Of a stretch of DNA of 48,602 nt, positions 6,403 to 38,294 are shown piece by piece. The translations under genes were made by a program, and so were the position numbers. Positions within the stretch are counted from its first letter, which is position 1. Each line of letters starts with the position of its first letter. The DNA is from an uncultured Planctomycetales bacterium (GTDB lineage Bacteria > 4484-113). The notes under the pieces are model-generated. The model worked only from the letters and a program-made list of their open reading frames with translations, made no database searches and was not told the origin of the DNA. The DNA lies in NCBI GenBank assembly GCA_964643155.1, contig CAZXPM010000001.1, positions 1-48,602 on the forward strand, given 5' to 3'.

Positions 6403-9400
6403 ATGGGCATCCTACGCGCACTTTCGGGACTCCTCGGCGGCAAATCCCTGCGGCAAGCCGCCACGTTTCTGTCAACCGGCAAGACCGAAGAAGCCCTGAA
6501 GATTGTAGAGAAGTTGGCCGCCGGCTTTGAACCGCCGGTTCCTGAAGAGAAGCTAGAGGAGTACGCAGAGCTGCACGCGCTCTGGGGGCGGTGCCTGGCG
6601 AAGATGAAGAACCCCGAGGCGCTCAAGCACTTCGTTATCTCCGACGAGGCGAAAGAGAACGAGTCCTTGTTGCGCGAGGGGGCTATTCTCATCGATGAGC
6701 TGGGAGTAGTCTCGCCGGAAGCTACAGCGTACATACTGAAGCTGGCGCAGCGCACAAGCGGCGAGAAGGGCTTCTTACTGAACTACGCCAAGAAGCTCGT
6801 TGAAGAAGGGGGGGCCGCGCTCTCGGGGGAAGAGTTTGAGCTGGTGATGGAGGCCAGCCGGACATTCACTCTCTGGAAAGGTGGAAGCACGCTACTGGCG
6901 GAGAAGTTCCTGGAAGAGGGCCGCCGAGACGCCGAGGCGATTGACATCTACCGCATTGCTTACCCTACGCGCCAGCACGACGAGAAGCTGGTCGCAATCC
7001 TGCTGGAGCATTTGACGGTCAACAACGAGCGCAGCGAATTCGCGGCCAAGCTGTACAAAGACCAGCTGGACAGCGGCCTAGAGGACGATAACGCGCTGCG
7101 GCTGCTCGCCGAATACTACATTGAGCAGCAGGAAGTAACGCCCGCCACGATTGAGTACATCCAGCGGGCGTTGGAGAGGAAGTTACCGGGGCACGACTAC
7201 CTGGAGAAGTTCGCCGGATACCTGCTGCGCTCGCGCAAGGAGTTCCTAGACAAGAAGAAACTGCTCCTGCTGGTTTTCCGGGCGGGGTACTTCAACAAGA
7301 ACGTGCTCGCATTCCTCGCGCAGGCGTTTGCTGAGGAGGGGAACTTCTCTGAAGAGGCGCTGACCGCGTACGAGGAAGCACTGAAGAACAACCTGCTTAC
7401 CAAGCGCATCACGCTAGTCCTGGCCGAGTACTTCTTAAGCGAAGACCGCCGCGACGACTTCGCGTGCAGGGTGTATGAGCATTACCTGGGCTCATGGCCG
7501 GAAAGGCGGCAGCCCAGACTGTACAGCCTGCTGGCGGCAAGCTATATTGAAAAAAAGCGGGTGGATGAGCAGGCGCAAGCCATATATGAAGTTGCGCTCA
7601 CTCACGACCCGAACAACCCGGAGATTCTCCCACTGCTGGCGGCGAGCTACCTGACCTTTGAAACACGCCAGCCAAAGGCCTATTCGGTTTACGAGCGCGC
7701 CTTCCCCCTGATGGACGAGGCGCACAGGAAGCAGGTGGCGCTGCTGCTGGCAGAGAAGCGCATTGAAGACGGGAATTTCGACCGGAAGACGCTGGATTAC
7801 ATTGACCTGGCGCTGCCGCAGGCGCAGGGAAGCCGCAAGGAAGCCCTGCTGGAGGCCCGCACGAAGTGCTTCCTGGCGCTAGACCGCAAGGATGAGCAGG
7901 CAGCGAAGATATACCTGGAGCTCTACCACCGCAACATTGAAGAGCGTAAAGAAAACACGAAGCTCGTGAAGATCCTCTCCGATATCCTCGTTGAAAGCCC
8001 CGAGCTAGTGGACGCACCGGAAGAACTGAAGCTGAGGATATGCTACGAGCGGTTTGAACTGGAGAAATACGAGTGCCCGGCGGAGATTTCGTTCCTGCTG
8101 CTGGAAGATGTACTTACGCGCAACCATGACTACAAACACCGGCTGGCGCTGGCAGTTCGGTGCTTTGACCTAGACTGCGATAGCCTTTCCAGGCGGCTGG
8201 AGGAAACGGGGAACCTTGAGCTGCTGCAAGAGATCGGGAAGTTCTACCTCGACCGGTTCAACTATGAGCTCTCGGCCAAGGCATACCTGGTAGCCAACAC
8301 CTACAAGCATACTGAAGAGAACGACTACAACCTTGCGAAAATCCGGTTGGCGGAGAACCGCGAAGACGAGGCGCTTGAGATGCTAGAGGCTGTCAAGTCG
8401 CCAGAGATGAAGGCCAGAGTGCTTTACTGGCGAGCGGCGGCGCTGCAGCAGAGAATGATGCCCCAGGAGGCGCGGCCGCTCATTGAGGAGCTTGAGGCCA
8501 ACCCGGATTCGGTGCCTGAGATACTGATCAAGCTACGCCTGGGCCTGAACGCCGAGCTGGAGGGAGACTATGGAGACGCGGTGGAGCTTTACCGCGAAGT
8601 GCTGGAAGATCCCAGCAGCCTGCCCTACCGCCGGTGGGTAAGCCTGGAGATTGGCATTGCATTGTGGCGCATGGGGACAACCGACGAAGCGCAGAAGGAG
8701 CTGGAAGCGGTATACCGGCATAACCCGAACGGACGCGCTGAGCAGCGGACCTATTCAATGATCCTCGTGGCCCGCGGATACGAGCTCATCCAGGAGAATC
8801 AATGGGACCGGGCGCTCGGCAACTTCATTGAAGCCATTGAAGTGAACCGCACTGACCGCTTCTTGCGCAGTGTAATCGTGGACCTGCTGCTGATTTACGC
8901 GAAGAGGTACTTTTTCAACCGTGAATACGAGATGGCCGTGAGGATACTGGAAGTGGCGCACCGCGTCCTGCCCAAGAGCATGGATGTGAAAGTGTACCTT
9001 GCATACTCGTACCATCTCATGAAAAAGTACGGTCAAGCGCTGATTTACTACCGCGATATCACCTGGACGACCGATGCTCCGATGCTGGAGCGGTCACAGG
9101 CCTATTGCTATATCCAGAACAACCAACCGGAGAAAGCGTGGCGCGTCTTCCTAGACCTGAAGCGCCGCGGGACCTTGCTTCCGAGCAGCATCCCGTTGCT
9201 ATTGCAGTCATACCTGGCAGATCAGGCCCAGGAGGGGTCGGAGACATTCAAGAGCTTCGAGTTTCCGGAGGACACCAAGAGCCCTATCCCCTTTGCCGCT
9301 TTCTATATCCATGACGGGCAGTACGACCGCGCGCTGAAGTTGCTAGCCAAGCATGCCAAAGGCGGGCACCAAGAACTCCAGCGGCTCTGGTTCATGGGCA

Positions 9401-10374
9401 AGGCATGTTCCAAGCAGGGCGACCGCAAGCTGGCCGTGACCTACTGGAAGCAGCTGCTGGAAGCCTCACAGAAGCGGCAGACGCACGACGAGACGAAGCT
9501 CTCAGAACTACTGGAAATAGGGCTGGCCTTTCTCCAGGCTGGTTACGCCCAGGAGGCCATGGAAACCTGGGAGGACCTTAAGAAGCTCGCGCCCGATTTC
9601 CAGTACCTGAGCAAGCTCTACGCCTACACCCTGGACCTCAACGCCTACAACCTCGCGCTAAAGGGCAACATCAAGCTCGCCATCGCCGAATGGGAGAAGG
9701 CGGTGGACTACGACTCGGAGAATCTCTCAATTATCCAGAATATCGCCATCGCGTATATGTCGGTTGACGACTTCGACCGCTCGGCGGTTTACTGGCGCAA
9801 ACTGCTAAACCGCTGGAAGGTGATGGTGGACCGCAATCCCCAGAGGTACGCTCATCTCACAGTGGCGATAGGCGAGATTGAGCGGCTGCTGGCCGACGTA
9901 TTCGTGTCGCAGCGTGAGCGGCCCGATGAGGTCTATCTCGCCAAGACCGAAGAGATGGTGGACTACTTCCAGCAGGCGAACCAGTTCTACTGGATACTGG
10001 GCCTTAACAAGAATGCAACCAAGGGGCAGATTGAAAAGAGCTACTTCAGGCTTGTAAAGATATTCAACCCCGAACGCCATGCCAGCGACTTCATGCTGCT
10101 GGAAGACGCATACGCGAACCTGACAGACAGACGCAAGCGCGACCGCATAGACATCTTCGCCTACGAGCCGGTAGACGCCGGCCGCCTGCGCAAGATCGTG
10201 CTGGGAGACAGCAAGGTGGGTGCAGCGTTTGAAGATCTGAACTTGAGCGCGTCGGTGCCGGAACCGGACTACTCGCAGCTACAGCCGGACGACACACCGC
10301 CTGAGACCGTGGTAAAGAAGCTGGAGGAGTCAATTCAGTACTACTTCCGGCTGGGAGACATCTCGGTAGTATGA
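6403..10374 (+). CDS. Giant TPR-repeat protein (1323 aa) with C-terminal degenerate J (DnaJ-like) domain
   Basis: Helical-repeat composition throughout with many A/L/Y/E-rich 34-aa-like units. The C-terminal YWILGLNKNATKGQIEKSYFRLVKIFNPERHASDFMLLEDAYANLTDRRKRDRIDIF matches the J-domain helix I-III pattern, with NPE in place of HPD. Confidence 0.75.
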   Translation: MGILRALSGLLGGKSLRQAATFLSTGKTEEALKIVEKLAAGFEPPVPEEKLEEYAELHALWGRCLAKMKNPEALKHFVISDEAKENESLLREGAILIDELGVVSPEATAYILKLAQRTSGEKGFLLNYAKKLVEEGGAALSGEEFELVMEASRTFTLWKGGSTLLAEKFLEEGRRDAEAIDIYRIAYPTRQHDEKLVAILLEHLTVNNERSEFAAKLYKDQLDSGLEDDNALRLLAEYYIEQQEVTPATIEYIQRALERKLPGHDYLEKFAGYLLRSRKEFLDKKKLLLLVFRAGYFNKNVLAFLAQAFAEEGNFSEEALTAYEEALKNNLLTKRITLVLAEYFLSEDRRDDFACRVYEHYLGSWPERRQPRLYSLLAASYIEKKRVDEQAQAIYEVALTHDPNNPEILPLLAASYLTFETRQPKAYSVYERAFPLMDEAHRKQVALLLAEKRIEDGNFDRKTLDYIDLALPQAQGSRKEALLEARTKCFLALDRKDEQAAKIYLELYHRNIEERKENTKLVKILSDILVESPELVDAPEELKLRICYERFELEKYECPAEISFLLLEDVLTRNHDYKHRLALAVRCFDLDCDSLSRRLEETGNLELLQEIGKFYLDRFNYELSAKAYLVANTYKHTEENDYNLAKIRLAENREDEALEMLEAVKSPEMKARVLYWRAAALQQRMMPQEARPLIEELEANPDSVPEILIKLRLGLNAELEGDYGDAVELYREVLEDPSSLPYRRWVSLEIGIALWRMGTTDEAQKELEAVYRHNPNGRAEQRTYSMILVARGYELIQENQWDRALGNFIEAIEVNRTDRFLRSVIVDLLLIYAKRYFFNREYEMAVRILEVAHRVLPKSMDVKVYLAYSYHLMKKYGQALIYYRDITWTTDAPMLERSQAYCYIQNNQPEKAWRVFLDLKRRGTLLPSSIPLLLQSYLADQAQEGSETFKSFEFPEDTKSPIPFAAFYIHDGQYDRALKLLAKHAKGGHQELQRLWFMGKACSKQGDRKLAVTYWKQLLEASQKRQTHDETKLSELLEIGLAFLQAGYAQEAMETWEDLKKLAPDFQYLSKLYAYTLDLNAYNLALKGNIKLAIAEWEKAVDYDSENLSIIQNIAIAYMSVDDFDRSAVYWRKLLNRWKVMVDRNPQRYAHLTVAIGEIERLLADVFVSQRERPDEVYLAKTEEMVDYFQQANQFYWILGLNKNATKGQIEKSYFRLVKIFNPERHASDFMLLEDAYANLTDRRKRDRIDIFAYEPVDAGRLRKIVLGDSKVGAAFEDLNLSASVPEPDYSQLQPDDTPPETVVKKLEESIQYYFRLGDISVV

Positions 10375-11060
10375 AACGCAAGGCCATAACAGCTATTCTG
10401 CGCGAAGCTGCCAACCGCGTTGACTTCACTACCGAGCGTTATTACAATATATCATTCAGATTGGGGAACGAGGGGCTTCCGGGCAGCGTACCAGAAACCA
10501 AGCCCGATTACAGCCTCTACGAATACCAAACTGAACTGAACCGGATTCGCATTGAGCTATTCCGCTTGCAGCGGGGCTTAGCCGGGCTGAAGATGCCCGC
10601 CATTGAAGCGGTAGGGCTGGACCGGGTCGGCGAGGACCTTGAGCGGCTCAGGGGGGATCTCGTGAGACTCCTGGGGAAAGTGGACAAGGTCGCCAGCCTG
10701 GAGCCGTCCAAGGCCGCGATTGAGGGCTTCCTGGAAGTGGCCGATGCTTGCGAGCGGGTGCTTGCTGCGGCCAGAAAAACAGAGGGCATACCTGAAAGCG
10801 TGATGGCCGGGATGGGATCCATCTACCGGCTATTGCTCGGGAAGCTGGCGCGTCTCGGGGTTATCCAGATTACAGATAACGAGCGCTTCGATCCAAAGGT
10901 GCACATGGCGCTGGCGACCGTGGAGGATCCCAGCAAGCCGGACGGCAGCATCGCCGAAGTGCAACTGACCGGATACATGCTGGACGATCAGGTACTGCGC
11001 AGCGCACAAGTTATCGTGGTGCGGAATCGCAGCACTGGCGATGACACTGGTGCCGGATAG
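10371..11060 (+). CDS. grpE: GrpE-like nucleotide exchange factor
   Basis: ATGA overlap with the upstream gene. Coiled-coil N-terminal half. The C-terminal beta-domain signature is ERFDPKVHMALATVEDP...GSIAEVQLTGYMLDDQVLRSAQVIVV. Confidence 0.75.
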   Translation: MKRKAITAILREAANRVDFTTERYYNISFRLGNEGLPGSVPETKPDYSLYEYQTELNRIRIELFRLQRGLAGLKMPAIEAVGLDRVGEDLERLRGDLVRLLGKVDKVASLEPSKAAIEGFLEVADACERVLAAARKTEGIPESVMAGMGSIYRLLLGKLARLGVIQITDNERFDPKVHMALATVEDPSKPDGSIAEVQLTGYMLDDQVLRSAQVIVVRNRSTGDDTGAG

Positions 11061-11087
11061 TGCGATCTTGGATTTATAGGAGTTATC

Positions 11088-12836
11088 ATGGCGCAGATTG
11101 TTGGAATCGACTTGGGCACGACCAACTCGTTGGTCGCGGCCATAGTGGACGGCAAGCCGACCCTCATTCCCAATGAGCGAGGCAAGTTCATCACGCCTTC
11201 CGTCGTCGGCTTCACCGACACGGGAGAGCTGCTGGTGGGCGAGACGGCAAAGAACCAAGCGGTAGCTAATCCCGAGCGCACTGTCACTAGCATCAAGCGC
11301 ATGATGGGCACGGACCGGAGGATAGTAATCGGCGAGCGCGAGTATTCGCCGCAGGAGATTTCGGCGGTCATCCTCAAGAAGCTCAAGCTGGACGCCGAGA
11401 CTTACCTCGGTACCGTAGTTAACGAGGCTATCATTACGGTTCCTGCGTACTTCACCGACGCCCAGCGGCAGGCCACCAAGGATGCTGGAGAGATTGCCGG
11501 CTTTAAGGTGGAGCGCATCATCAATGAGCCCACTGCCGCCGCCCTGGCTTATGGCATTGACAAGGGCGGAGAGGCGCGCACCATTATGGTGTACGACCTC
11601 GGCGGCGGCACTTTTGACGTCTCTATCATCCGGCTGGTTGAAGGGGCGTTCAAGGTGCTCGCCACCACCGGCAACAACAACCTAGGCGGCGACGACTTTG
11701 ACTACCGGCTTGTGCAGTACCTCATTGACCGCTTCAAGGACAAGGAGAAGATTGACCTTAAGAACATCCCCGATGTCTCGCAACAGCGCGCCATCTTGCA
11801 GCGCTTGAAGGAGGCCGCAGAGACCGCGAAAATCGACCTCTCCTCGCTGTTGGAAACCGAGGTCAATCTGCCTTTCATCTATACCGAGGGCGAAGAACCG
11901 CTGCACCTGCACGAAACCATTAGCCGCGCAAAATACGAGGAGCTGGTGCAGGACCTGGTGCAGCAGACGGAGCAGCCCATGAAGCTGGCTTTGTCTGACG
12001 CCAATCTGCCGCCGGACCAGATTGACGCCATCATCCTGGTCGGCGGTATGACCCGAACGCCGATGGTGCAGCGCCTGGTGCGGGAAGTTATGGGACGCGA
12101 TGCACTGAAGGACATCAACCCCGAGGAGTGCGTGGCCATCGGCGCATCAATCCAGGCCGGCATCAAGCGCGGCTCGCTGGAAGAGTTCGTGGTGGTGGAC
12201 GTTGCGCCCTTTACGCTCGGCATTGAGACCGAGGGCGATAAGTTCTCACCCATTGTACCGCGCAACACTGCGATCCCCTGCAGCCGCAAGAGCCTGTACC
12301 GTACGACCGTTGACGGGCAATCGGAAGCGCTAATCCACGTCCTTCAGGGCGAGAGCCACAAGGCCGCGGAGAACGAGTCTCTGGGCGAGTTCATCCTCGG
12401 CGGGATAACTCCAGCCCCCAAGGGCGAGTCCCTGGTTGAGGTGTCGTTTGACTACGATGTGAACGGCATCGTGAAAATCACGGCCAAGGACCGCAAAACG
12501 GGCCAGGCCAAGTCCATCACGATTAAGGCCTCCAAGAAGCGGCTCTCCACCGACGAGGTCGCCTATGCCCAGCGTGACATCAGCAAGCACACAGGCAGCA
12601 TGCTGGCGCAGCGGGAGAAGTCGAAAGTCCTGTTTGAGGCGGAACGCACTCTCAAGGACCTCAGCGGGCTCATTAAGGCCGGCGAGAAGGGCGAAAAGAA
12701 GATTGACGGCATCGAACTCGCGGCCCTCAATGAGATGTCCAAGAAGCTCAAGGACGCACTGAAGACAGAGGACTTGGGCAAACTTGAAGAGTACGTTGAG
12801 AAGGCGACAGGGCTTATTGCCGATTACTCATACTGA
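11088..12836 (+). CDS. Hsp70/DnaK-family chaperone paralog (582 aa, short lid)
   Basis: [47 protein letters not shown], and the SBD-beta [22 protein letters not shown] lies upstream. Confidence 0.9.
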
Positions 12837-12857
12837 CGCCTACCAAGGGTGGTGTAA

Positions 12858-13478
12858 ATGCGGTTGCCGCAATTGACAGCCTGCCCCGTGTGCCACAGCG
12901 TCCTATCGGAGAGGGTGGCAGCGTGCCCCAACTGCGAAACAGAGCTGACACCTTACTATGAGCAGCACGAGGCCGCGCGGGCGCTGATTAACCAGGCAGC
13001 CAACGCTGTTTCCCGTGGCGAGATGATTGAAGCCAAGCGGCTGCTGGGCGATGCTGAGCGAATGCTGCCATCGCCGGTGGAAGCAGTAGAAGAGCTGCGC
13101 ACTGTGATCTTGCTGCAGGAGCATCGCCTGGAGGACGCTCTCAGAGCGGCTTCAGCCCTACCTGATGACTGCCCGGGGAAGCCCAGACTGCTGGACGATA
13201 TCGCCGCAGCATCCGAGCGAGTGGAGAACGCGAAGATGCACTTCAACCTAGCCCTCACTGCTGCAAGGCAGGGTTCCCTGGCTGATGCGGCCTATCACGT
13301 GGAGAAAACGCTCTCGTTGGCACCGCACCTGCCTGAGCCCTGGCGGCTGGCAGCCAAGATAGCTCTCAAGCGTGAGGATTTTGCAGCGGCGCAACGATAC
13401 CTATCACGTGGCGCAGAGCTGTTTCCGCGCGATAGCTACCTGGCACCGCTGGCAGCAGAGATTAAACAGGCCAAATAG
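12858..13478 (+). CDS. Zinc-ribbon + TPR-like protein (hypothetical, part of the Hsp70 operon)
   Basis: N-terminal CPVCHSVLSERVAACPNCETEL (CxxC..CxxC), followed by helical TPR-like repeats. It starts 21 nt after the dnaK-like stop. Confidence 0.6.
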   Translation: MRLPQLTACPVCHSVLSERVAACPNCETELTPYYEQHEAARALINQAANAVSRGEMIEAKRLLGDAERMLPSPVEAVEELRTVILLQEHRLEDALRAASALPDDCPGKPRLLDDIAAASERVENAKMHFNLALTAARQGSLADAAYHVEKTLSLAPHLPEPWRLAAKIALKREDFAAAQRYLSRGAELFPRDSYLAPLAAEIKQAK

Positions 13479-13518
13479 CCCCCAGAGCCAACCGCAACCC
13501 TTCCCGCCAGCAAAGAAA

Positions 13519-13546
13519 AGGGGCGCACCCATTCGGGCACGCCCCT
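13519..13546 (-). terminator. Rho-independent terminator for the minus-strand PKD/Kelch operon (also closes the plus-strand Hsp70 operon)
   Basis: On the minus strand: AGGGGCG..loop..CGCCCCT followed by TTTTCTTTG. It lies between the convergent stops at 13478 and 13567. Confidence 0.65.
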
Positions 13547-13566
13547 GGTAATTCAGCTATTGGAAC

Positions 13567-16371
13567 TTACTGCAGGTTCGCCAGAGCTTCAACCTGCAAC
13601 TCCACCACCGCGGTCGCCACACCCTGCTCCGTCTCGCCGCCGACAATCCAGATAGTGTCGTAGGGCGTAGGATTGCCGTCAGTCATAAAGGTGGCGAATT
13701 TCACCGAGCCAGCACCCACCCGGCCAACGCCCGGGTCGGGAGAGACAGTGCGGGACCAGCGGTACGTGTCAGGATTGAACACCTCTGCCTCAGCCACGTA
13801 AGTAGGAGCGCCCTGGTCAAACGGGTAGTCAACTCCGCCGTAGACGTAGATCTTGCCGTTGATCACCTCGGCAGTGGCGCCAGCACGCGCGTTGCGCATA
13901 TCGGGGAGAATCTCCCATCCGCCGGTGAGCAGGTTCACGCGTTCCACCGTGTGGACGCTCTGACCCTGGTTGTTGCGCCCGCCTATTACGTACAGGTAAA
14001 TCGCATTCTGCGATGGAGCATCCACCACCATGGCAGAGTCGTAACGCGGAGTCGGCATTGCGGGGATGACGCCGGTGTACCAGGAGTTGGTCCCCGGCGT
14101 ATAGAGCCAGCCTGTTGGCGAGACTTGCTCACCCGGCGGGTCTCCCCGGAGGCCGCCGAGCATGATGATTGAAGCATTCCCGCCGTAGTTGATGCCGAAA
14201 ATGGCTGCCATCTGGCGCAGCTCAGTGTCGCTGTTTCCGATGGTACCCACGACCTCCCACGGCACAACAGGCCGATCAAGCGGGTCGTCCGGCTCGCTGT
14301 CTATAGCGGGCAGGCGCTCCACCGTGGACACCGTGGCCTGGATGTTGTTGTAACCGCCGATAGCGTAGATGTAGGGAACGCTAGTAGTCCCGCGCGCGTA
14401 ATCCGACAGCGGCTCGGCAATTAGCTGGCCCCGGCCATTGGACAGTGGCAGCCGGTCACTCACCTCGTAGGACAATATCCACGTGCCAGTAGTGAGCTCT
14501 GCCTTTTGTCTCAGCAACTGAACGCTGCGCAGCGCCATATTGCCGTCCATGCCGCCGACAGCGTAAACCCGGCGCTCCTTGTAACGGTCGTCTCCGAGGT
14601 CGGGCGTGCCACGGTCGTCAATGATCGTTACCGCCGCCAGCCCGAAGTCGCGGCGCGGCTTGAACGCAACACCGGTAGCGTCCAGATTGCGGCGGGCCAC
14701 GAAAGAAAGGGGTGTGTGTTCCACACGGTTGGCCAATTCCAAGCCAGCTTCGGACAGCGCCACCGTCTTCACTTTGATGGCTTTGTATCCTGGTAGCAGC
14801 GTAACCGGGAAGTTGACCACAAACACTGCCGAGCTGCCGCTGGTTCCGGAGCCGAAGAGCTGGATAGTAGCATCTACGGTCTCAGGGTCGCCGTCGAGGT
14901 CAACCGGCTCGTAGGTTCCGTCAAACTCCGGATCCCAAGCCAGCTCCACCGGGTCCCCGTTGGGAACCAGGGCGCCCGGGTCGGACGCTTCAGCATACAC
15001 GTCCTCGCCGGTGAGATCGATGAGGAACTTGTAGATGCCAGTGGAACCGCCCGCAGTGACCCTGATGGCTGCCTTAATGCCTGTGTTGGGCTGAACCAAC
15101 AGGTACTCCTGACGGTCATCTGTGAGCTTGCTCAGGTCAAAGCCGCCATCCCGGTCATAATCCGCGTACACCGCAATCTGCGTAGTGAGCGGGTTGACCA
15201 CGGGCTCGTAAGCTCGGTCAACCACGTGCACCGGCCACTCCATACGTATAATCTGGCCGACACCATCCACAAACTGCAGAGCAAGCGTGTAATCCCGAGA
15301 GGCCGCCCCGTACGTGATGTACGGGTTTACCATTATCTTGAGGTCGGCATCGTAATAGGGAACTGACGCGGTTGTCGTGTTGGCGTCATAGATGCCATCG
15401 TCAGTGAAGTCCCACCAGAACGCATACGGCTCAATACCCGGATGATCCGGGTCCACGGTCACGCTAGCATGCAACACCGGCTCGCGCTCTGCGGGGATTT
15501 CGCTGGAAGAGTCGAAACTGATAAGGATGGACCCGTCCGAGCGCACCGGCGGCGAAGCGTTGACTATCAGCTCCGGCGGCCCTGTCGGCTCGGAGGGGAC
15601 TTCCTTGATCACAACCAGCGGGAACTCGCGGCGCACCGTATAGCCGTTTGCATCGGTAACCAGCAGCACCGCTACGAAGCTCTTGCTCGTGCCTTCAAAC
15701 AGGGTGTAAGTGTACTGCGGGTTCTGCAACACCGAATCCGTTTCGCCGTCGCCGTCGAAGTCCCACTGGAACCGGTACGGAGGTGTGCCCGGATTGAGTG
15801 GGTCCGGGAATACGCGGAAGTATGCCGGCTCGCCGGAGATGAAGCCGTAAATGGGCTCGCCTTCCGCATCGTAACCCAGCACCGTGTCGCTGAAGACGCG
15901 GGTGAGGCTTGGGTCAAGCGAGAACTGCGGCTCACTGGTAACAGTGATCGCAAGCGGTTCGCTTGTCATAGACTCACCCGCGTCATCAACGACTCTGACT
16001 GTCGCCTGGTACACGGAGATCCCGACACTCTGGTCTGCGGCACGGAGATAGTACAGGTGGTACGCCTGCTCGGTGCGGCTGGCCACATCGTTGATGTAGA
16101 AGTCAAACGCACCGTCATTGTCGTAGTCCCACATGTACGTGTAGGGCATCGTCCCGCCAGACACGGTCGCGATGAAGTTGACGCCAAGCGGAGAGCCACC
16201 AAGCGTCGGTGAGGCAGTGAAGGTGACGATGCGGAGATCGTCCACACCGTCGCCGCCACCGGCTTGGCTGGGTAGGCTTGGCGCCTGCCCACCTCCATCG
16301 CCGCCTCCGCAGGAGGAGGCGGCGATGAGGACCGTAATCAACAACATCCCGATTGCTTTCAGCACTTTCAT
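13567..16371 (-). CDS. Lipoprotein with N-terminal PKD-like domains and C-terminal Kelch-repeat beta-propeller (934 aa)
   Basis: Lipobox LIAASS-C followed by GGGDGGG. PKD signatures include GSPLGVNFIATVSGGTMPYTYMWDYDNDGAFD and PPYRFQWDFDGDGETD. Kelch blades include RRVYAVGGMDG, YIYAIGGYNN, LYVIGGRNN and KIYVYGGVD. Confidence 0.8.
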   Translation of the reverse strand: MKVLKAIGMLLITVLIAASSCGGGDGGGQAPSLPSQAGGGDGVDDLRIVTFTASPTLGGSPLGVNFIATVSGGTMPYTYMWDYDNDGAFDFYINDVASRTEQAYHLYYLRAADQSVGISVYQATVRVVDDAGESMTSEPLAITVTSEPQFSLDPSLTRVFSDTVLGYDAEGEPIYGFISGEPAYFRVFPDPLNPGTPPYRFQWDFDGDGETDSVLQNPQYTYTLFEGTSKSFVAVLLVTDANGYTVRREFPLVVIKEVPSEPTGPPELIVNASPPVRSDGSILISFDSSSEIPAEREPVLHASVTVDPDHPGIEPYAFWWDFTDDGIYDANTTTASVPYYDADLKIMVNPYITYGAASRDYTLALQFVDGVGQIIRMEWPVHVVDRAYEPVVNPLTTQIAVYADYDRDGGFDLSKLTDDRQEYLLVQPNTGIKAAIRVTAGGSTGIYKFLIDLTGEDVYAEASDPGALVPNGDPVELAWDPEFDGTYEPVDLDGDPETVDATIQLFGSGTSGSSAVFVVNFPVTLLPGYKAIKVKTVALSEAGLELANRVEHTPLSFVARRNLDATGVAFKPRRDFGLAAVTIIDDRGTPDLGDDRYKERRVYAVGGMDGNMALRSVQLLRQKAELTTGTWILSYEVSDRLPLSNGRGQLIAEPLSDYARGTTSVPYIYAIGGYNNIQATVSTVERLPAIDSEPDDPLDRPVVPWEVVGTIGNSDTELRQMAAIFGINYGGNASIIMLGGLRGDPPGEQVSPTGWLYTPGTNSWYTGVIPAMPTPRYDSAMVVDAPSQNAIYLYVIGGRNNQGQSVHTVERVNLLTGGWEILPDMRNARAGATAEVINGKIYVYGGVDYPFDQGAPTYVAEAEVFNPDTYRWSRTVSPDPGVGRVGAGSVKFATFMTDGNPTPYDTIWIVGGETEQGVATAVVELQVEALANLQ

Positions 16372-16418
16372 CAGTGTCGGGTCCTCCCTGTCAAAGGGCT
16401 ACCGAACTCAACCAGACG

Positions 16419-17426
16419 CTACTGCGGCTGGTAGAGCTCAACAATCTTGTTCATACCGAGTTCAGTAAGTCCACCGAAAATGTAGTACTTACCTTCGCCG
16501 GTGAAGAAGTCGTTCGGAGCGACTATGCCGGTACCACCAGCCCATCCACGCGGGATAAGGCCGCTGGGGGCGACTGACACCGTGCCATTCGCCAGGACGT
16601 CATAGACGCCGCCAGTGTATCCATCGACTGTGCGCCCACCCATCTGGTGGTACAGGAATCCGCGTTCGTTCACCTGCCAGCCTGCCACTACACCGGCCGC
16701 CGCCTCAGGCGTGTTGGCCAGCGTACGCCAGCTACCGCTGGTGGGATTAGTGACGCTGTCAAACGTGAACTCGTCAACCTGCGAGATGTAGTTGCCGTTG
16801 CGGTCAAATCCACCGAATACGATGATCTTCCACGGCCGATTGGTCATCTTATCAGGCAGAATCACAATCGAATCGTGGTATGCACGCTCAACCGGCATCG
16901 GAGGCATCAAGGAGTAGTCCCCCGCCTGGGGATCCTGGCCTTCCTGACGCTGCGCCGGCGGCGCCCACGCATTGAACCACCGCATCGCGTTGGTCGGCAC
17001 ACCGCTGTCGTTGATACCGCCGGTGATGAACACATAGCAGTACGGGCCCTCAGGCCATACCGGCGGCGGGAAGATATTACCCAGCGACTCAATGGTCACC
17101 GCTGAGTGGCCGTACAGGGGCTCGGGCAGCGGGTTCAACGGAACCGAGGCGTTCGCGCCGCCTCCACCCTGGTTGTCCATGGGTGGACGATCAGGCACGA
17201 TAGGCGGGTTGACATTGTCGCCTTCCTGTGGGAGCCAGTCGTAATCGTGGAAGGTGTACCGATTGGACCAGATATCTGTCTGGTTGTTGATGTACTGGGC
17301 GATTGGTACGCCGTTCATGATCAGAATCGGGAACTGGTCTTCCACGCCGTAGGTCTCGGGATAGTACTTCTGAACGATGTCCAGCGGCTCGCCGCCTTCG
17401 TCGCGGCCGCCAAACACGAAGAACAC
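16419..17426 (-). CDS. Kelch-repeat C-terminal half of a second PKD/Kelch lipoprotein
   Basis: The frame is open up to the TGA at 17487-17489. Kelch blades include FFVFGGRDEGG, YVFITGGIND, IIVFGGFDRNG and YYIFGGLTE. The C-terminus resembles that of 13567..16371. There is no signal peptide of its own, and it is in the same frame as ORF 17487..19409. Confidence 0.7.
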   Translation of the reverse strand: MFFVFGGRDEGGEPLDIVQKYYPETYGVEDQFPILIMNGVPIAQYINNQTDIWSNRYTFHDYDWLPQEGDNVNPPIVPDRPPMDNQGGGGANASVPLNPLPEPLYGHSAVTIESLGNIFPPPVWPEGPYCYVFITGGINDSGVPTNAMRWFNAWAPPAQRQEGQDPQAGDYSLMPPMPVERAYHDSIVILPDKMTNRPWKIIVFGGFDRNGNYISQVDEFTFDSVTNPTSGSWRTLANTPEAAAGVVAGWQVNERGFLYHQMGGRTVDGYTGGVYDVLANGTVSVAPSGLIPRGWAGGTGIVAPNDFFTGEGKYYIFGGLTELGMNKIVELYQPQ

Positions 17427-17442
17427 AGGAACACCGTAACCA

Positions 17443-17482
17443 CCACGTCCTAGGGTCCAACCTGGACCCGTGTCAGGACGGG
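17443..17482 (-). other. Stem-loop immediately 3' of the in-frame UGA (SECIS-like candidate recoding element)
   Basis: In the mRNA after the UGA, the lower stem is CGUCCU(+7..12)/AGGACG(+36..41). The upper stem is GGGUCCA(+18..24)/UGGACCC(+28..34), with apical loop GGU. Confidence 0.35.
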
Positions 17483-17486
17483 GCTG

Positions 17487-19409
17487 TCATCCGGGGCATG
17501 CGCCGGGGCCACCAGGGTTGATGTCCCAGCGCTCGTGAATCATCGTGGCAGCGGCCGAGCCTCGCGGCACAAACGGGTCGCTGCGCTGGATGTTCCGTGA
17601 AGGGTGCATGAACGCCGGGAACGCCGTACCTTGGGGCGGCGGGTTCTTGACGGTCGGCGTCTGGCCGACATAAGCGTATGGGAGCCCCTGCAGCGAGTTC
17701 AGCAGCGTAAAGCTCCCGTCAGCGTAGGCAGTGCCGGTCTCTGAACCGAACATCTCCGATGCCGGCCGGTCGTCACCGGAGAGGTTCAGAGCATAGCTGG
17801 ACTGAGTAATGTCCACAATGCCCTGGAACTCGCCGGAGTCACTCAGGATATCGCCGCCAAAGAAGTACACCATGCCCGATGGGTGAGAAGCCGTTGCCGG
17901 GTTCGCCCGGGGGCTGATCGGCGTAGCGGTACTTCCGCTCATCAGGCCGCCGTAAATGGACCATCCGAGGGTCGGCGTACGCTCGGCGCGATACAGCGTC
18001 TCCGGTTCGCTCTGGGTCGGAGTGATTCGGATCAGATTGCTCACAGCCACCACGCCGTTAGCATCGGTAGCCACGCAGCGCACCACATAAGGCGCACCCA
18101 CGCCTTCGCCAGCGTCAGGTGAGCCGTTGCCGTTCTCGTCAACATACTGGCCGGTGAAGGTGGCAAAGGTGATGGTCGGATTCGCCTTCTTCGTCCGGTC
18201 GGGCACTACGACCGCCTGGGCGTCCTTAATCGGTGTTGGGTACATCGGCGGCAGCACAATGACCGGCTCGTCCGCCGTTGGAACCAGATCGCTGAATACT
18301 TCCCATTCATAAGAGATGGGCTCCCTACCTCCATCAACGATGCTGGTGAACTGGACGTTGAACGGCACCGGGCCCTCGGTCACGTCGGCGCCGATGGTGA
18401 TGCTAAAGCTCACCTCTTCGCCGACGAACACCGGGACAATGCCGCTGGTGGTCTCAACACCCTGAGCGTCGCGCACGGTCATCCTAGCGTTGTAGGTACC
18501 GGGCGCAACGTAAGTGTGCTGGGCAACAGCCGAGCTGTCAAAGGCCCGAGAGGTTCCATCGCCGAAATCCCACTGGAACAGGTAGGGAGGCTCGCCACCA
18601 GAGGCACCGCCATTGAAGACAACCGGAAGCGGAGCCTGCCCAGAGCCGGGGTTCACCGTTGCGTAGGGAGACAACGATGAAGGCGGCATCACGCTGATGG
18701 CGATACGCCAGTCGGGCTGGCCGTCGCCATCCGCATCATCGGCAGTGGAAACCTCAACTCCACGGTTATCGGCAACTGTCAGCACGGGATAGAAGAGAAA
18801 CTCTCCATCGCCGCCACTCCCCGGTGACTCGAAAGTGTACACCGGGTTCTCACTGAAGCTGTCGATAATACCGTCCCCGTCAAAGTCCCACTTGAAACCA
18901 TATGGAGGACTTCCGCCGGAAACAAGCGCGGTGAACTGCACACGCAGCGGTGCCGCACCTGAGTTGACGGAAGGCTGGAATCGCACCACCAGCGGTTGGG
19001 TTCCACCCCCACCCGTGTCCGCAGTCACTGTAATTGACTTGTTCACGGTAACCGTCTGCTGGCGCGAGTCGGTCACTTTCAGCGATACCACCCCGCTATT
19101 GTTGAAGGTCCAATAGGGGTCTACCGCGTTGGAGTCGTACACTCCGTCCCCATCGAAATCCCATTCGTAGGAGTACGAAGGATACCCACCGAACGCGTAT
19201 GCGGTGAAACTGACAGTTAGAGGTGACGGCCCCTGGTCAGGCGTGGCCGTCAACACCACGGAAAACGGCTGCTGATTGTCGTCCGGCGGCGGACTGCTGC
19301 CGCCCTGCGATGGCGTGACCGGAGTTGTGCCTCCTCCGCCACCACCGCAGGCGACCAAAAACGCCGCCATTACGACTAGCAGCACCAACATAAATCTACT
19401 GACTGACAT
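17487..19409 (-). CDS. Lipoprotein with multiple PKD-like domains; N-terminal half of a PKD/Kelch paralog, ending at an in-frame TGA
   Basis: Lipobox FLVA-C followed by GGGGGG. PKD signatures include SPLTVSFTAYAFGGYPSYSYEWDFDGDGVYD, APLRVQFTALVSGGSPPYGFKWDFDGDGIID and PLPVVFNGGASGGEPPYLFQWDFGDG. It ends ...PGGPGACPG-TGA. Confidence 0.8.
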   Translation of the reverse strand: MSVSRFMLVLLVVMAAFLVACGGGGGGTTPVTPSQGGSSPPPDDNQQPFSVVLTATPDQGPSPLTVSFTAYAFGGYPSYSYEWDFDGDGVYDSNAVDPYWTFNNSGVVSLKVTDSRQQTVTVNKSITVTADTGGGGTQPLVVRFQPSVNSGAAPLRVQFTALVSGGSPPYGFKWDFDGDGIIDSFSENPVYTFESPGSGGDGEFLFYPVLTVADNRGVEVSTADDADGDGQPDWRIAISVMPPSSLSPYATVNPGSGQAPLPVVFNGGASGGEPPYLFQWDFGDGTSRAFDSSAVAQHTYVAPGTYNARMTVRDAQGVETTSGIVPVFVGEEVSFSITIGADVTEGPVPFNVQFTSIVDGGREPISYEWEVFSDLVPTADEPVIVLPPMYPTPIKDAQAVVVPDRTKKANPTITFATFTGQYVDENGNGSPDAGEGVGAPYVVRCVATDANGVVAVSNLIRITPTQSEPETLYRAERTPTLGWSIYGGLMSGSTATPISPRANPATASHPSGMVYFFGGDILSDSGEFQGIVDITQSSYALNLSGDDRPASEMFGSETGTAYADGSFTLLNSLQGLPYAYVGQTPTVKNPPPQGTAFPAFMHPSRNIQRSDPFVPRGSAAATMIHERWDINPGGPGACPG

Positions 19410-19478
19410 CGCAACACCCCTGTTATCGGGTTTTTACCACCCTATTATACCCAAGAACGCGCTTTTCACACCAGTGGG

Positions 19479-20039
19479 TCACTTCGCGCGCTCAATGTAC
19501 TGGCAAGTACGGGTATCCACTTTTATCAGATCGCCCTCGTTCACGAACAAGGGAACCTGGACTACCAGCCCGGTTTCCAGCTCCGCGGGCTTCGTCGCGC
19601 TGGTGGCGGTGTCGCCGCGCACACCGGGCTCCGCGTGCGTAACACGTAGTACAACGGCCGCCGGCAGGTCCACACCGAGGATTTCGCTCTCATACATCTC
19701 CAAGAAGACCGGATCGTTCTCCTTGATCAGCTTGACTTTCTCGCCTATCACTTCCTCGGGGACGCTCATCTGGTCGTAGGTCTCGTTGTCCATGAACACG
19801 AGCATATCGCCTTCGCGATACAAGTACACCATCTCACGGCGTTCAACGCGAATGTCCTCGAGCTTCTCTTCCGTGCGGAAAGTGACTTCGTTGATGGATC
19901 CGGAGCGAAGGTTCTGGATCTTGGCGCGCACGAATGCCGGGCCCTTTCCAGGCTTTACGTGGAGGAACTCCAGCACCCGGAACAGGTCGCCATTGCGCCT
20001 AAAGGTCAAGCCTCTGCGAAAGTCATTCGGGGTTATCAT
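19479..20039 (-). CDS. efp: Elongation factor P
   Basis: 186 aa. Contains FRRGLTFRRNGDLFRVLEFLHVKPGKGPAFVRAKIQNL with the conserved KPGKG loop. Confidence 0.95.
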   Translation of the reverse strand: MITPNDFRRGLTFRRNGDLFRVLEFLHVKPGKGPAFVRAKIQNLRSGSINEVTFRTEEKLEDIRVERREMVYLYREGDMLVFMDNETYDQMSVPEEVIGEKVKLIKENDPVFLEMYESEILGVDLPAAVVLRVTHAEPGVRGDTATSATKPAELETGLVVQVPLFVNEGDLIKVDTRTCQYIERAK

Positions 20040-22800: not shown

Positions 22801-23790
22801 ATGGGCATCAGAACCGCTGTAATTGGCGTTGGTTCCATGGGGCAGCACCACGCCCGGCTCTATAGCGCGCTAGAAGCGTCGGAGCTGGTCGGGGTGGCTG
22901 ACATAAGCGAGGCGGTCGCCGCAACGGCCGAGAAGTACGGCACTCGCTTCTTCAGGGACTACACAAAGCTGCTGGACGAGAGACCGCAGCTCGTGAGCAT
23001 CGCCGTGCCGACCTCACTGCACCGGGAAGTGGCACTGGCCGCCCTAGAGGCTGGCTGCAACCTCTTAATCGAAAAACCCATCAGCGACACGGTTGAGGGC
23101 GCTGAGACCATTATTGAGCAGGCGCGCAAACGCTCGCTCAAGGTGTTCGTGGGGCACGTGGAACGGTTTAACCCGGCTGTCATTGCGCTGAAACAGCAAA
23201 TCGACCGCGGGATGCTGGGCGAAGTGCATTCCATCAGCAGCCTGCGGGTCGGAGCACGTAACGTGCGGATTTTTGATACTGGCATCATCCTGGATCTGGG
23301 AAGCCACGATATTGACCTCATCAGCTACTTGTACGGGCGCAAGGCCCATTCAGTATTCTCCATCGGCGCGGCCAAGGCTCACAGATTTGAGGACCACGCG
23401 GCCATATCGCTCAAGTACTCCGAAAGCGCCGCGGGCTACATTGAGCTGAGCTGGCTCTCCCCGTACAAGGTGCGCAAGATGTTCATAGTCGGCACCGACC
23501 ACTTCGGGCTGGTGGACCTCATTGAGCAGTCGCTCATCATCTTTGACGGTGAGAACTGGGCCAACACCGGGCTGGTTGAGCGGGACGAGCCGCTGCGGTT
23601 GGAGCTGGAGCGGGCGTTGCAGGCAGTGGAGGACGACCTTCCGCCAGATGTCTCCGGTGAGGACTCGCTCTACACAATCAGGGTGGCGCTTGGGGCGATT
23701 TCGTCCTATTCCAGCGGCGAAGCAGTGCACTTTGACGAGCACCGGCAGAACTCGGCGTATCCCACAATGGCCAACTCCAATGCCAACTGA
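22801..23790 (+). CDS. Gfo/Idh/MocA family NAD(P)-dependent oxidoreductase
   Basis: N-terminal Rossmann IRTAVIGVGSMGQHHARLY and the EKP motif (LLIEKPIS). Its 3' end overlaps the lpxB start by 11 nt. Confidence 0.8.
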   Translation: MGIRTAVIGVGSMGQHHARLYSALEASELVGVADISEAVAATAEKYGTRFFRDYTKLLDERPQLVSIAVPTSLHREVALAALEAGCNLLIEKPISDTVEGAETIIEQARKRSLKVFVGHVERFNPAVIALKQQIDRGMLGEVHSISSLRVGARNVRIFDTGIILDLGSHDIDLISYLYGRKAHSVFSIGAAKAHRFEDHAAISLKYSESAAGYIELSWLSPYKVRKMFIVGTDHFGLVDLIEQSLIIFDGENWANTGLVERDEPLRLELERALQAVEDDLPPDVSGEDSLYTIRVALGAISSYSSGEAVHFDEHRQNSAYPTMANSNAN

Positions 23791-25021
23791 ATCGAGCGCA
23801 TTAAAGCTGTTCGTCTCAGCCGGCGAGCTCTCCGGTGATATGCACGCGGCCAACCTGCTACGGGCGATTGCTGGCCACCGGGACGTGAGCGAGTTGAGGG
23901 CGACGGCGCTGGGGTCGTTCCACCTCGCCGACGCAGGAGCGGAGGTGCTGTTTGACACCGGCAGCAACGCGAGCATCGGCTTCATCGGCAACTTCCTCCA
24001 GGCCCCACAGCGGTTGCGGCTGTTCCAGGAAACGCTGCGGCATTTGCAGCGGTTTCCGCCTGAGGCTGTGATACTGGTAGACAGCCGCTTCTTCAACCTT
24101 AACCTGGCCCGGGCGCTGCGGCGCAGTGGCTTCGAAGGACCAATTGTCTACTTCATTGCACCAGTCCTCTGGCAGGCGGCGTCCGATCCGCGGTTTGACC
24201 GGTTTGAGGAGCAGGGGGCTGGATTCCGCCAGAAAGTGGGCAAGCGATTCCTGCTAATGAAGGAGCTGGTGGACCTGGCGCTGGTCATCTATCCGGTGGG
24301 CCTGCAGCTATACCAGCACTTCGGCGTCCCTTACGAGTTCATCGGCCACCCGCTGTGCGAGATACTGCAGCCGTCCAGGCCGCGCAGCGAGTTCCTGGAG
24401 GAACTGGGGGCGGTGCCGGGGCACCCGGTCATAGGTTTGATGCCGGGCTCGCGGCGTGAGGAGGTTGCAGTAATCGGCCGCGAGATGATCCGGGCCGCCC
24501 GAGCCATCGCGGAGAGCTTCCCCCAAGCCACCTTCGCCCTGCCCGTGGCCCATCCAGCACTGAAGGACAGCATCATTAGACTGCTAAAACGGTATCCGGT
24601 TGACCTGACACTGCTGGAGCCGGAGCAACGCTACGACCTTGTTTGCCACGCAGACTTGATGATAGTTGCTTCGGGTACGGCCACCCACGAGTGCGCGGTC
24701 GCGGGAACACCGCACATCATGGCCTACCGGCTGCCGTGGCTTTACGACCTCATGTATTCCACCTTTACGCGGTTCCGGCTGCCGGCCTACGCCTTCCCCA
24801 ATATCATCGCAGGCGAGAATGTAATACCGGAGCTGGTTCGCAGCGAATGCAACGCCGACTACATCGCGGGCGTGGCGATGTCGTTGCTGGACGACGTAGC
24901 GGAATTGGCGCGGATGCGCCAGCGGCTGGAAAGCGTCCGCGGAATGATACATCGGCCGCAGCCGCTGGAGCGCGCGGCAGACTTGATTGTGCAGCTAGCC
25001 AACTCCGCAAGAAGAGTCTAA
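23780..25021 (+). CDS. lpxB: Lipid-A-disaccharide synthase
   Basis: MPTESSALKLFVSAGELSGDMHAANLLRAI is the typical LpxB N-terminus. The C-terminal ASGTATHECAVAGTPHIMAYR also fits. The track ORF start 23522 is an out-of-context extension that overlaps the previous gene. Confidence 0.85.
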   Translation: MPTESSALKLFVSAGELSGDMHAANLLRAIAGHRDVSELRATALGSFHLADAGAEVLFDTGSNASIGFIGNFLQAPQRLRLFQETLRHLQRFPPEAVILVDSRFFNLNLARALRRSGFEGPIVYFIAPVLWQAASDPRFDRFEEQGAGFRQKVGKRFLLMKELVDLALVIYPVGLQLYQHFGVPYEFIGHPLCEILQPSRPRSEFLEELGAVPGHPVIGLMPGSRREEVAVIGREMIRAARAIAESFPQATFALPVAHPALKDSIIRLLKRYPVDLTLLEPEQRYDLVCHADLMIVASGTATHECAVAGTPHIMAYRLPWLYDLMYSTFTRFRLPAYAFPNIIAGENVIPELVRSECNADYIAGVAMSLLDDVAELARMRQRLESVRGMIHRPQPLERAADLIVQLANSARRV

Positions 25022-37301: not shown

Positions 37302-38237
37302 CTAGGGCTTCTTCGGCTGGAGGTCATCGAAGGAGAGACCGCCGATAATGAGGATGTAGCTTGGGACCATCGGCAGCACACAGGGCGAAAGAAACGACGC
37401 CAGTCCGCCAAGGAAGGCAATGCCGAGGTTAACTGAACGGCCAGCGAGCATCTCCTCGGCGTTGAGCGAGGATGTGCCCAGCAGCGATATCACCTTCGCC
37501 GTGCCCAGGAAGAAAACCGCGAGACAGAGCACGCCGGCGAAGATGAGGGCGGGCGCCAACAGCTTGCGGCGCAGGGTCTCGTCCTTCGCCATGATGCGCG
37601 CCAGTTGGAGGGCAACGGCAAAAACCAGCGCGATGACCCCGGCCCACAGCGCAATGCGGAAGAGCAAGGCGGGCTGGACAGTGTAGATACCGGACATAAA
37701 GCCGAAGAAAAGCACCAAACCTACAGCGATGAGCAGGGTGGCGCTGACGAAGTTGATCGTACCCACGTGGCGCGCCACGCGCTGAATGAAGCCCACGGCC
37801 GAGCCGATGAGTAGCGCCACCAGCAGGAAAGGTATCGCCAGGCCGAGCGAGTAGGCAATCATCATGGGCACCCCCTGGCCGGGCTGGCTGGCGGCTAGTG
37901 TGAGGATAACCACGAGTATGGGGCCGAGGCAGGGCGTCCATCCGGCGGCGAAGGTGATGCCGATGAGGAAACTGGAGAGGTAGCCGCCCTTGCTCTGAAC
38001 ATGCGCCTTTTTCTCAAGCAACAGGAAGCGCAGCGGCGAGAGGCCCCAGGTACTCAGCAGGATGTGCAGGCCCAGGATCATGACGATGACCCCGCCCACC
38101 CAGCCGAACATGCGCGGGTAGTTCTTGATCAGGTCGCCGATGAAGTTCGCCGGCAGGCCGAGGACGACGAAGATGATGGAGAAACCCAGCACGAATGCCA
38201 GCGAGTGGCTGAAGGCTTTGAGAACGGCCCGATTCAT
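37302..38237 (-). CDS. ccdA: CcdA/DsbD-family thiol:disulfide transporter core, apparently circularly permuted
   Basis: The second-Cys motif FAAGWTPCLGPIL lies mid-protein. The normally N-terminal first-Cys motif GGLASFLSPCVLPMVPSYI is at the extreme C-terminus after two extra TM helices. ATG 38237 is preceded by AGGAG. Confidence 0.7.
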   Translation of the reverse strand: MNRAVLKAFSHSLAFVLGFSIIFVVLGLPANFIGDLIKNYPRMFGWVGGVIVMILGLHILLSTWGLSPLRFLLLEKKAHVQSKGGYLSSFLIGITFAAGWTPCLGPILVVILTLAASQPGQGVPMMIAYSLGLAIPFLLVALLIGSAVGFIQRVARHVGTINFVSATLLIAVGLVLFFGFMSGIYTVQPALLFRIALWAGVIALVFAVALQLARIMAKDETLRRKLLAPALIFAGVLCLAVFFLGTAKVISLLGTSSLNAEEMLAGRSVNLGIAFLGGLASFLSPCVLPMVPSYILIIGGLSFDDLQPKKP

Positions 38238-38294
38238 ATCAGCTCCTGACGCGTGCCGCGGACGGCACAAAAGATGGCGGCCATTATATCAGCG

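Follow-up and report, generated by a model that had tools for sequence, protein, structure and literature searches.

Two adjacent minus-strand open reading frames (ORFs) in a contig from an uncultured Planctomycetales bacterium (GTDB lineage 4484-113; NCBI GenBank assembly GCA_964643155.1, contig CAZXPM010000001.1) raise the question of whether they are two genes or one. The whole stretch of 48,602 nucleotides that was analysed is referred to here as the window. The two ORFs are separated by an in-frame TGA codon, and read together they encode a lipoprotein with PKD repeats and a Kelch propeller. The original prediction, made from the sequence of the window, interpreted this UGA as a possible selenocysteine (Sec) codon. 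Our analysis supported this interpretation: the UGA most likely encodes Sec, because the codon is conserved across relatives and a conserved RNA hairpin lies downstream of it. Judging from the sequence evidence, the two ORFs probably constitute one gene for a genuine bacterial selenoprotein of 996 aa that is so far uncatalogued.

Results

A single reading frame interrupted by one UGA codon

Translation of the minus strand revealed one frame spanning 16419-19409, in which the TGA at codon 641 was the sole internal stop. The 5' component ORF (19409..17487) encodes 640 aa and the 3' component ORF (17426..16419) encodes 335 aa, with a gap of 60 nt between them. The peptide flanking the TGA was ...NPGGPGACPG on the upstream side and QPRPDTGPGWTLGRGGYGVPVFFVFGGRD on the downstream side. 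The read-through protein could be aligned end to end with uninterrupted full-length homologues of 960-1010 aa. The prediction that the two ORFs share a frame interrupted only by this TGA was borne out, as was the expected size of about 996 aa. The Cys residue said to precede the UGA by three codons (C-P-G-U) is encoded by TGC, and this spacing was kept in 13 of the 14 orthologues described below.

An in-frame TGA can also be an artefact, either a base-call or assembly error or the consequence of a genome-wide reassignment of UGA. Global reassignment was rejected on the basis of stop-codon usage, as had been argued from several genes of the window: among the 37 ORFs taken as genes of the window, 15 end at TGA, 13 at TAG, and 9 at TAA. 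A scan of the window detected no second long ORF pair bridged by TGA in a plausible coding frame. When the window and all loci of relatives were scanned for TGA-joined ORF pairs, or for TGA followed by a hairpin resembling the bacterial Sec insertion sequence (bSECIS), only the PKD/Kelch gene gave a credible match, and the remaining matches fell in off-frames of known genes. Independent assemblies from JGI, ENA, Logan, and metagenome-assembled genomes (MAGs) at NCBI carry the same TGA, which excludes a base-call error. No observation spoke specifically for an artefact, and we give one of either kind almost no chance.

Conservation of the UGA codon among orthologues

Homologues were searched for using the read-through sequence as the query, and the DNA of the matches was obtained from JGI, ENA, Logan, and NCBI assemblies. 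Close homologues fell into two classes: full-length proteins of 960-1010 aa, and a larger set of proteins of ~640 aa with 49-99% identity. The latter nearly all end with ...NPGGxGxCP[GST], and those of the L004 lineage end with APPG. In every locus large enough, the genes were arranged in the order peptidase M24, efp, and the gene in question, followed by a PKD/Kelch paralogue (866-926 aa). In the large loci of relatives, the genes for a TPR protein, dnaK, grpE, and a 1320-aa DnaJ/TPR protein were located downstream of the paralogue. Since they share this gene neighbourhood, the interrupted relatives were regarded as orthologues. The conserved block corresponds to 6403-20039 of the window and was also observed in L001, L004, L022, L023, and L026, with the lipoprotein pair always beside the chaperone cluster. 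The TGA form is carried, for example, by GCA_002050035.1, by the MAGs of JAGGTK010000033.1, JAUWGS010000009.1, JAOZQG010000001.1, CAZKNJ010000012.1, and CAZSSB010000003.1, and by the 1.82-Mb contig ERZ21869602:ctg94792l, and every public gene call seen for it consists of two separate hypothetical proteins. The propeller family is tiny and lineage-restricted; an exhaustive HMMER search identified 26 cluster representatives among 1.84 billion proteins.

The orthologue set of the window's clade comprised 14 distinct DNA sequences from independent assemblies, with about 50-99% protein identity. The interrupting codon was TGA at the identical column in 14 of 14 sequences, and Cys was present at position -3 from it in 13; in the L004 lineage, a Cys is located at +7 instead. 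Both observations favoured Sec at this column. The frame remained open past the TGA into the Kelch part in 13 of the 14 orthologues. For the stop-codon count, three sequences of a remote clade (see below) were added to these 14. In all 17 the internal stop was TGA, whereas the terminal stop of the same genes was TAG in 12 and TAA in 5, and never TGA. Within the 20 codons past the UGA, which precede every start assigned by gene callers, the numbers of variable sites at codon positions 1, 2, and 3 were 8, 6, and 14, respectively, a coding signature. The 60-nt gap also retains the peptide QPRPDxGPGWxLG. For the 3' ORF, gene callers chose starts that vary from relative to relative and are not conserved.

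A conserved hairpin downstream of the UGA

The original prediction described a bipartite stem-loop of ~40 nt directly 3' of the UGA, with a G-containing GGU loop ~24 nt from the codon and a geometry similar to that of a Sec insertion sequence (SECIS). Both stems form in the window. The upper stem consists of GGGUCCA (17469-17463) paired with UGGACCC (17459-17453), enclosing the GGU loop at 17462-17460. The hairpin starts 17 nt past the UGA and its apical loop 24 nt past it (25 nt in L004), in agreement with the predicted spacing. The folding energy of the 66-nt stretch was -31.9 kcal/mol (z = -2.66), which was equalled by 2 of 200 shuffled sequences, and that of the upper hairpin by itself was -12.1 kcal/mol. 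According to the bSECIS consensus (Zhang and Gladyshev, as summarised in PMC13188914), the loop has 3-9 nt and the stem 4-16 bp, a G in the first two loop positions is followed by G or U, the distance between the UGA and the loop is 16-37 nt, and the minimum free energy is <= -7.5 kcal/mol. The window hairpin falls within each of these bounds, with a loop of GGU, or A-GGU-U (the A and U can pair), 7 bp, 24 nt, and -12.1 kcal/mol.

Alignment of the 14 junctions indicated that the upper helix is conserved. Paired nucleotides occupied 96.9% of its cells, and each of the 14 sequences formed the hairpin in its minimum-energy fold. Compensatory changes were found at three of the seven pairs: G-C/A-U in a ratio of 7:5, C-G/U-A in a ratio of 8:5 with one U-G intermediate, and G-C/G-U/C-G. 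The covariation score was 0.241 compared with 0.147 in shuffles; none of 500 shuffles reached 0.241, and slid registers scored lower. In several compensations, a replacement that alters the amino acid on one arm (ACC to GCC, Thr to Ala) was matched by the synonymous change GGU to GGC on the other, and such arm-coupled compensations would not be predicted from protein constraint alone. The persistence of the upper hairpin with compensatory changes thus favoured Sec.

The lower stem (CGUCCU/AGGACG) behaved differently from the upper one. Only 52% of its cells were paired, it had no compensatory support, and its two well-kept pairs correspond to conserved Pro and Gly codons. Being mostly specific to the window, the lower stem was placed outside the conserved element, and the proposal that it forms part of the functional structure was rejected. 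Of the bipartite stem-loop, therefore, the upper part stood and the lower part did not.

A second UGA site in a remote clade

In a remote clade (~38% identity; L021-L025, L029, and L030), the same syntenic gene is likewise split by a TGA, at L021:10571, L022:12050, L025:9009, L029:3025, and L030:2098. As judged by the distance to the GVPV strand, this TGA lies ~13 codons nearer that strand than the TGA of the window, in the same loop. Its context is ...PDQACHGWGCDAG[SG]-U-GTIDG... or ...PDCAVEGW[VI]QNTCA-U-GSIPG.... A hairpin, GGCAC-GGGC-GUGCC, begins 12 nt past the remote UGA; its loop starts 17 nt past the UGA and opens with G, as at the window site. The version in L029, GGCGC-AGGU-GCGCC, contains a compensatory A-U to G-C change alongside Thr-to-Ala and Val-to-Ala replacements. 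Moreover, the full-length homologue P0146, one of the 26 HMMER relatives among 1.84 billion cluster representatives, has a Cys exactly at the TGA column of the remote clade in an ungapped alignment of 140 residues (61% identity). Such a Cys is the classical Sec/Cys signature, for the sister site and not for the site of the window.

Relatives lacking the UGA

Uninterrupted homologues (P0001, P0002, P0005, P0012, P0013, and P0146) include five orthologues that are 52-70% identical to the window protein, and those fetched as loci (L012, L017, and L018) share the position adjacent to efp. They have the same architecture as the window gene, but lack both the TGA and the Cys at -3, and the loop has been shortened or rewritten in them. 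The sequence G-A-C-P-G-U-Q of the window protein corresponds to G-A-D-G-G-L-A in close TGA-less relatives, so that Asp occupies the C column and Leu the U column. In P0001/L017 and P0122, the peptide G-x-G-W-T-L-G is kept and the Cys and TGA are gone. Among the TGA-less orthologues, L017 (P0001; JBBIJQ010000020.1, 10355-10520) was the only one whose DNA was folded: it keeps G-A-G-W-T-L-G, and the hairpin does not form (-2.8 kcal/mol). JBBIRS010000002.1 likewise carries a form without the TGA. The loop is shorter or rewritten in the more distant TGA-less relatives. The replacement of C-P-G-U by D-G-G-L in L017 and P0122 points to loss of Sec through rewriting of the loop, not through a Sec-to-Cys change.

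Domain architecture and structural position of the UGA

The features of the locus are summarised in Table 1. The lipobox, read from the translation as ...AAFLVAC21GGGGGG, fits the pattern [LVI][ASTVI][GAS]C, and C21 and G24 were invariant in an alignment of 24 homologues. In the 5' ORF, Pfam detected PKD_4 (5e-20, 71.8 bits; cut-off 27) and PKD (1e-16, 61 bits; cut-off 23.5). The PKD region was all-beta in the AlphaFold2 model and matched multi-Ig/PKD surface proteins in Foldseek. In the 3' ORF, Kelch_4 (30.1 bits; cut-off 21.6) and Kelch_3 (29.3 bits; cut-off 22) were detected. Pfam found PKD and Kelch domains in the 934-aa downstream neighbour as well, consistent with the earlier statement that the two proteins share a layout of lipobox, PKD, and Kelch.

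Table 1 Features of the PKD/Kelch lipoprotein locus in the window.
Feature	Position	Strand	Description
Recoded gene, complete	16419..19409	-	ATG at 19409, UGA codon 641, terminal TAG 16421-16419; would encode a 996-aa pre-lipoprotein
Signal peptide and lipobox	19347..19409	-	MSVSRFMLVLLVVMAAFLVAC, then Gly/Pro/Thr-rich linker; read from translation; lipidated Cys would be residue 21
Tandem PKD / Ig-like beta-sandwich repeats	18015..19265	-	Residues about 49-465; Pfam, AlphaFold2, Foldseek
Six-bladed Kelch beta-propeller	16422..17915	-	Residues about 499-996; UGA within blade 2
Gly/Pro-rich loop, residues 627-659	17433..17531	-	Joins two blade-2 strands; bears C638-P-G-U641
Cys638 codon TGC	17496..17498	-	Three residues ahead of UGA; CxxU motif (C-P-G-U)
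In-frame UGA, proposed Sec codon 641	17487..17489	-	All 14 distinct orthologous sequences have TGA here
Conserved SECIS-like hairpin	17453..17469	-	7-bp stem GGGUCCA/UGGACCC, loop GGU (or 6 bp, loop A-GGU-U)
Lower stem CGUCCU/AGGACG	17446..17480	-	17480-17475 with 17451-17446; forms in window, only partly kept elsewhere
Uninterrupted paralogue, 934 aa	13567..16371	-	Lipobox, PKD-like region, Kelch; directly downstream

Kelch blade motifs flank the UGA: GMVYFFGGD is located upstream, followed by PRGSAAATMIHE and GVPVFFVFGGRD, and the UGA falls between the latter two, in the second blade. The first blade is encoded upstream of the UGA. The pLDDT, the confidence score of AlphaFold2, was ~90 in the propeller blades. 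When the full-length model was compared with the PDB using Foldseek, most matches were generic multi-Ig proteins; the match to the Kelch domain of KLHL12 (TMt 0.69) was the only informative one, and the comparison with the PDB gave no functional lead. In the AlphaFold2 model, the loop bearing the UGA has ~33 residues and is bordered by strands E620-626 and E660-666, and the pLDDT of its residues 631-643 was <50. The length and sequence of this blade-2 loop differ between homologues.

This position bears on the possibility that the gene is truly split or a pseudogene, the TGA being a nonsense codon or an ordinary stop and the PKD and Kelch parts being produced separately or not at all. Such a gene would account for the two ORFs annotated everywhere by gene callers and for an additional frameshift in one orthologue, L010. 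Since the UGA lies inside blade 2, both ORFs are required for the propeller; with blade 1 encoded upstream and the 3' part devoid of a signal peptide of its own, a reading as two proteins is structurally implausible, as the split would cut through a propeller blade. A split gene is also difficult to reconcile with a codon that is always TGA at one column down to ~50% identity when the terminal stops vary and are never TGA, with the coding signature and conserved peptide of the gap, with a 3' ORF lacking a conserved start codon, and with compensatory evolution in the hairpin. We accordingly consider a split gene or pseudogene very unlikely.

Evidence weighing against selenocysteine

Several observations count against the assignment of Sec to UGA641. 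First, no Cys was found at the Sec column of the window protein in P0001, P0122, P0005, P0012, and P0013, which have Leu or a rewritten loop there. The close relatives have Asp in the C column and Leu in the U column, and this site therefore lacks the classical Sec/Cys pair; the lack of a homologue with Cys in place of Sec is atypical for selenoproteins. Second, Rfam returned neither a SECIS nor any other family, for the whole window at the gathering score and for 17300-17600 up to E = 10. Third, the hairpin overlaps the conserved peptide G-P-G-W, and part of the nucleotide conservation is therefore attributable to protein constraint. Fourth, L010 (Ga0172366_10028028, 2678-2760) has a 1-nt deletion ~63 nt past the TGA that places the Kelch part out of frame; this could reflect either misassembly of the contig, which is 4 kb long, or decay of the copy. 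Finally, none of selA, selB, selC (tRNA-Sec), and selD was found in the 48.6-kb window or in ~0.4 Mb of 30 relatives' loci, which are loci and not whole genomes. ARAGORN detected only tRNA-Pro and no tRNA-Sec in the window and 28 loci, and Pfam analysis of 30 further ORFs of the window identified housekeeping and envelope genes and no SelA, SelB, or SelD.

Some of these observations would be equally compatible with Sec-independent programmed read-through or regulated termination, in which the hairpin delays termination at the weak UGA-C and a near-cognate tRNA inserts a standard amino acid, yielding 640-aa and 996-aa forms. UGA followed by C is a weak termination context, and C follows the UGA in 12 of the 14 window-clade sequences. 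Conservation of the TGA and of the hairpin downstream of it is expected from this mechanism just as from Sec insertion, and neither the absence of a Cys homologue at the window's column in its own clade nor the failure to locate Sec machinery within the window and the relatives' loci would be surprising. It does not, however, explain why both the loop sequence and the spacing of the hairpin conform to the SelB-type consensus, why a Cys is kept three residues upstream in 13 of 14 sequences, or why P0146 has Cys at the remote TGA column, a signature of Sec. In addition, the 640-aa product would have a broken propeller, and hairpin-stimulated read-through of this kind is not known as an established mechanism in bacteria. 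Taken together, read-through without Sec seems unlikely.

Discussion

Proposed decoding and role of the selenocysteine loop

Here, we propose a model for the PKD/Kelch gene in which UGA641 is decoded as Sec. Translation would start at 19409. At UGA641, Sec-tRNASec would be delivered by a factor of the SelB type, bound at the hairpin that starts 17 nt past the codon. Sec would become residue 641, and translation would run on to the terminal TAG at 16421-16419. The pre-protein would then be exported and lipidated at Cys21, and the PKD stalk would present the six-bladed Kelch propeller outside the cytoplasm. On the flexible Gly/Pro-rich loop of blade 2, Sec641 and Cys638 of the C-P-G-U turn could plausibly close into a selenylsulfide, and the loop may then be redox-active or bind soft metals. 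Because the C-P-G-U motif lies in a flexible, low-confidence loop and could plausibly close into a selenylsulfide, we infer that Sec belongs to an accessory redox-active or soft-metal-binding loop and is not a core catalytic residue. An accessory role is also in line with the loss of Sec in some lineages.

A more specific proposal can be offered only tentatively. The Sec/Cys loop might act as an extracytoplasmic selenylsulfide or soft-metal-binding switch on the face of the surface-anchored propeller, gained twice independently at two loop positions in the two clades and lost by rewriting to non-Cys residues instead of by the usual exchange of Sec for Cys. Its role would then be one of accessory sensing or capture on a binding scaffold, not of catalysis.

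Relation to known selenoproteins

More than 110 prokaryotic selenoprotein families are known, most of which are thioredoxin-like redox enzymes. The PKD/Kelch gene resembles genes decoded by SelB and SECIS, with fdhF of E. coli as the archetype, in having an in-frame UGA, a stem-loop directly 3' of it within the coding sequence, a small apical loop with G followed by G or U, a spacing of 24 nt inside the range of 16-37, and a Cys near Sec (CxxU). It differs from them in several respects: its product is no oxidoreductase with a known fold, no homologue has Cys in place of Sec at the column of the window, no Rfam match was obtained, and neither the cognate SelB nor the tRNASec turned up in the window or the relatives' loci. 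Among the families tabulated in PMC13188914, the nearest analogy is provided by the FCYXU-type TonB-dependent receptor, together with other envelope proteins carrying Sec in a loop; it too is a large exported or envelope protein whose single Sec lies in a loop and not in a classical redox active site, and also has a CxxU motif. The fold of the window protein, a lipoprotein with PKD repeats and a Kelch propeller, is different, as are the lineages, and no sequence relationship was detectable. Selenoproteins with a CxxU motif in a thioredoxin fold (SelW-like and AhpD-like, among others) share the C-x-x-U able to form a selenylsulfide. Their motif is located at a strand-helix junction of the Trx/AhpD fold, whereas that of the window protein lies within a propeller-blade loop rich in Gly and Pro and modelled with low confidence.

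The recoding apparatus thus looks like a standard bacterial one, and what is new is most likely the protein family, which is unlisted in the catalogues compared. The 119 prokaryotic selenoprotein families and subfamilies in Table 1 of PMC13188914 (2026) include no PKD, Kelch, propeller, or lipoprotein entry, and the main texts of BSepDB, deep-Sep, and the 2022 review mention none of these terms. NCBIfam gave no match to a selenoprotein model, only weak sub-threshold matches of the PKD type.

If the assignment is correct, the selenoproteins gain a family whose fold and location are unusual, namely an exported PKD/Kelch lipoprotein. Its host belongs to an uncultured lineage known only from metagenomes, which includes the MAG Planctomycetales bacterium 4484_113. 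There is also a practical problem, as public gene calls split the TGA form into two hypothetical proteins, and the site of the window would escape searches for Sec that require a homologue with Cys at the Sec column. The occurrence of two Sec positions in one loop, together with loss by loop rewriting, would be informative on how Sec sites arise and disappear.

Other observations in the window

Two further genes of the window showed unusual features. A CcdA/DsbD_TM-like ORF at 37302-38270 on the minus strand starts 24 nt past the penicillin-amidase gene. Its Pfam match begins at position 38 of the profile, and the Cys motif of the first transmembrane segment (TM1) type, SFLSPCVLPMVP, occupies its very C-terminal end, an arrangement suggestive of a permuted or duplicated domain. 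The longest ORF for LpxB (23522-25021, plus strand) has a TTG start and overlaps the end of the GFO/IDH/MocA gene (22801-23790, plus strand) by ~270 nt. The best-scoring LpxB match stretch starts at residue 242, and the real start of LpxB is probably well downstream of 23522.

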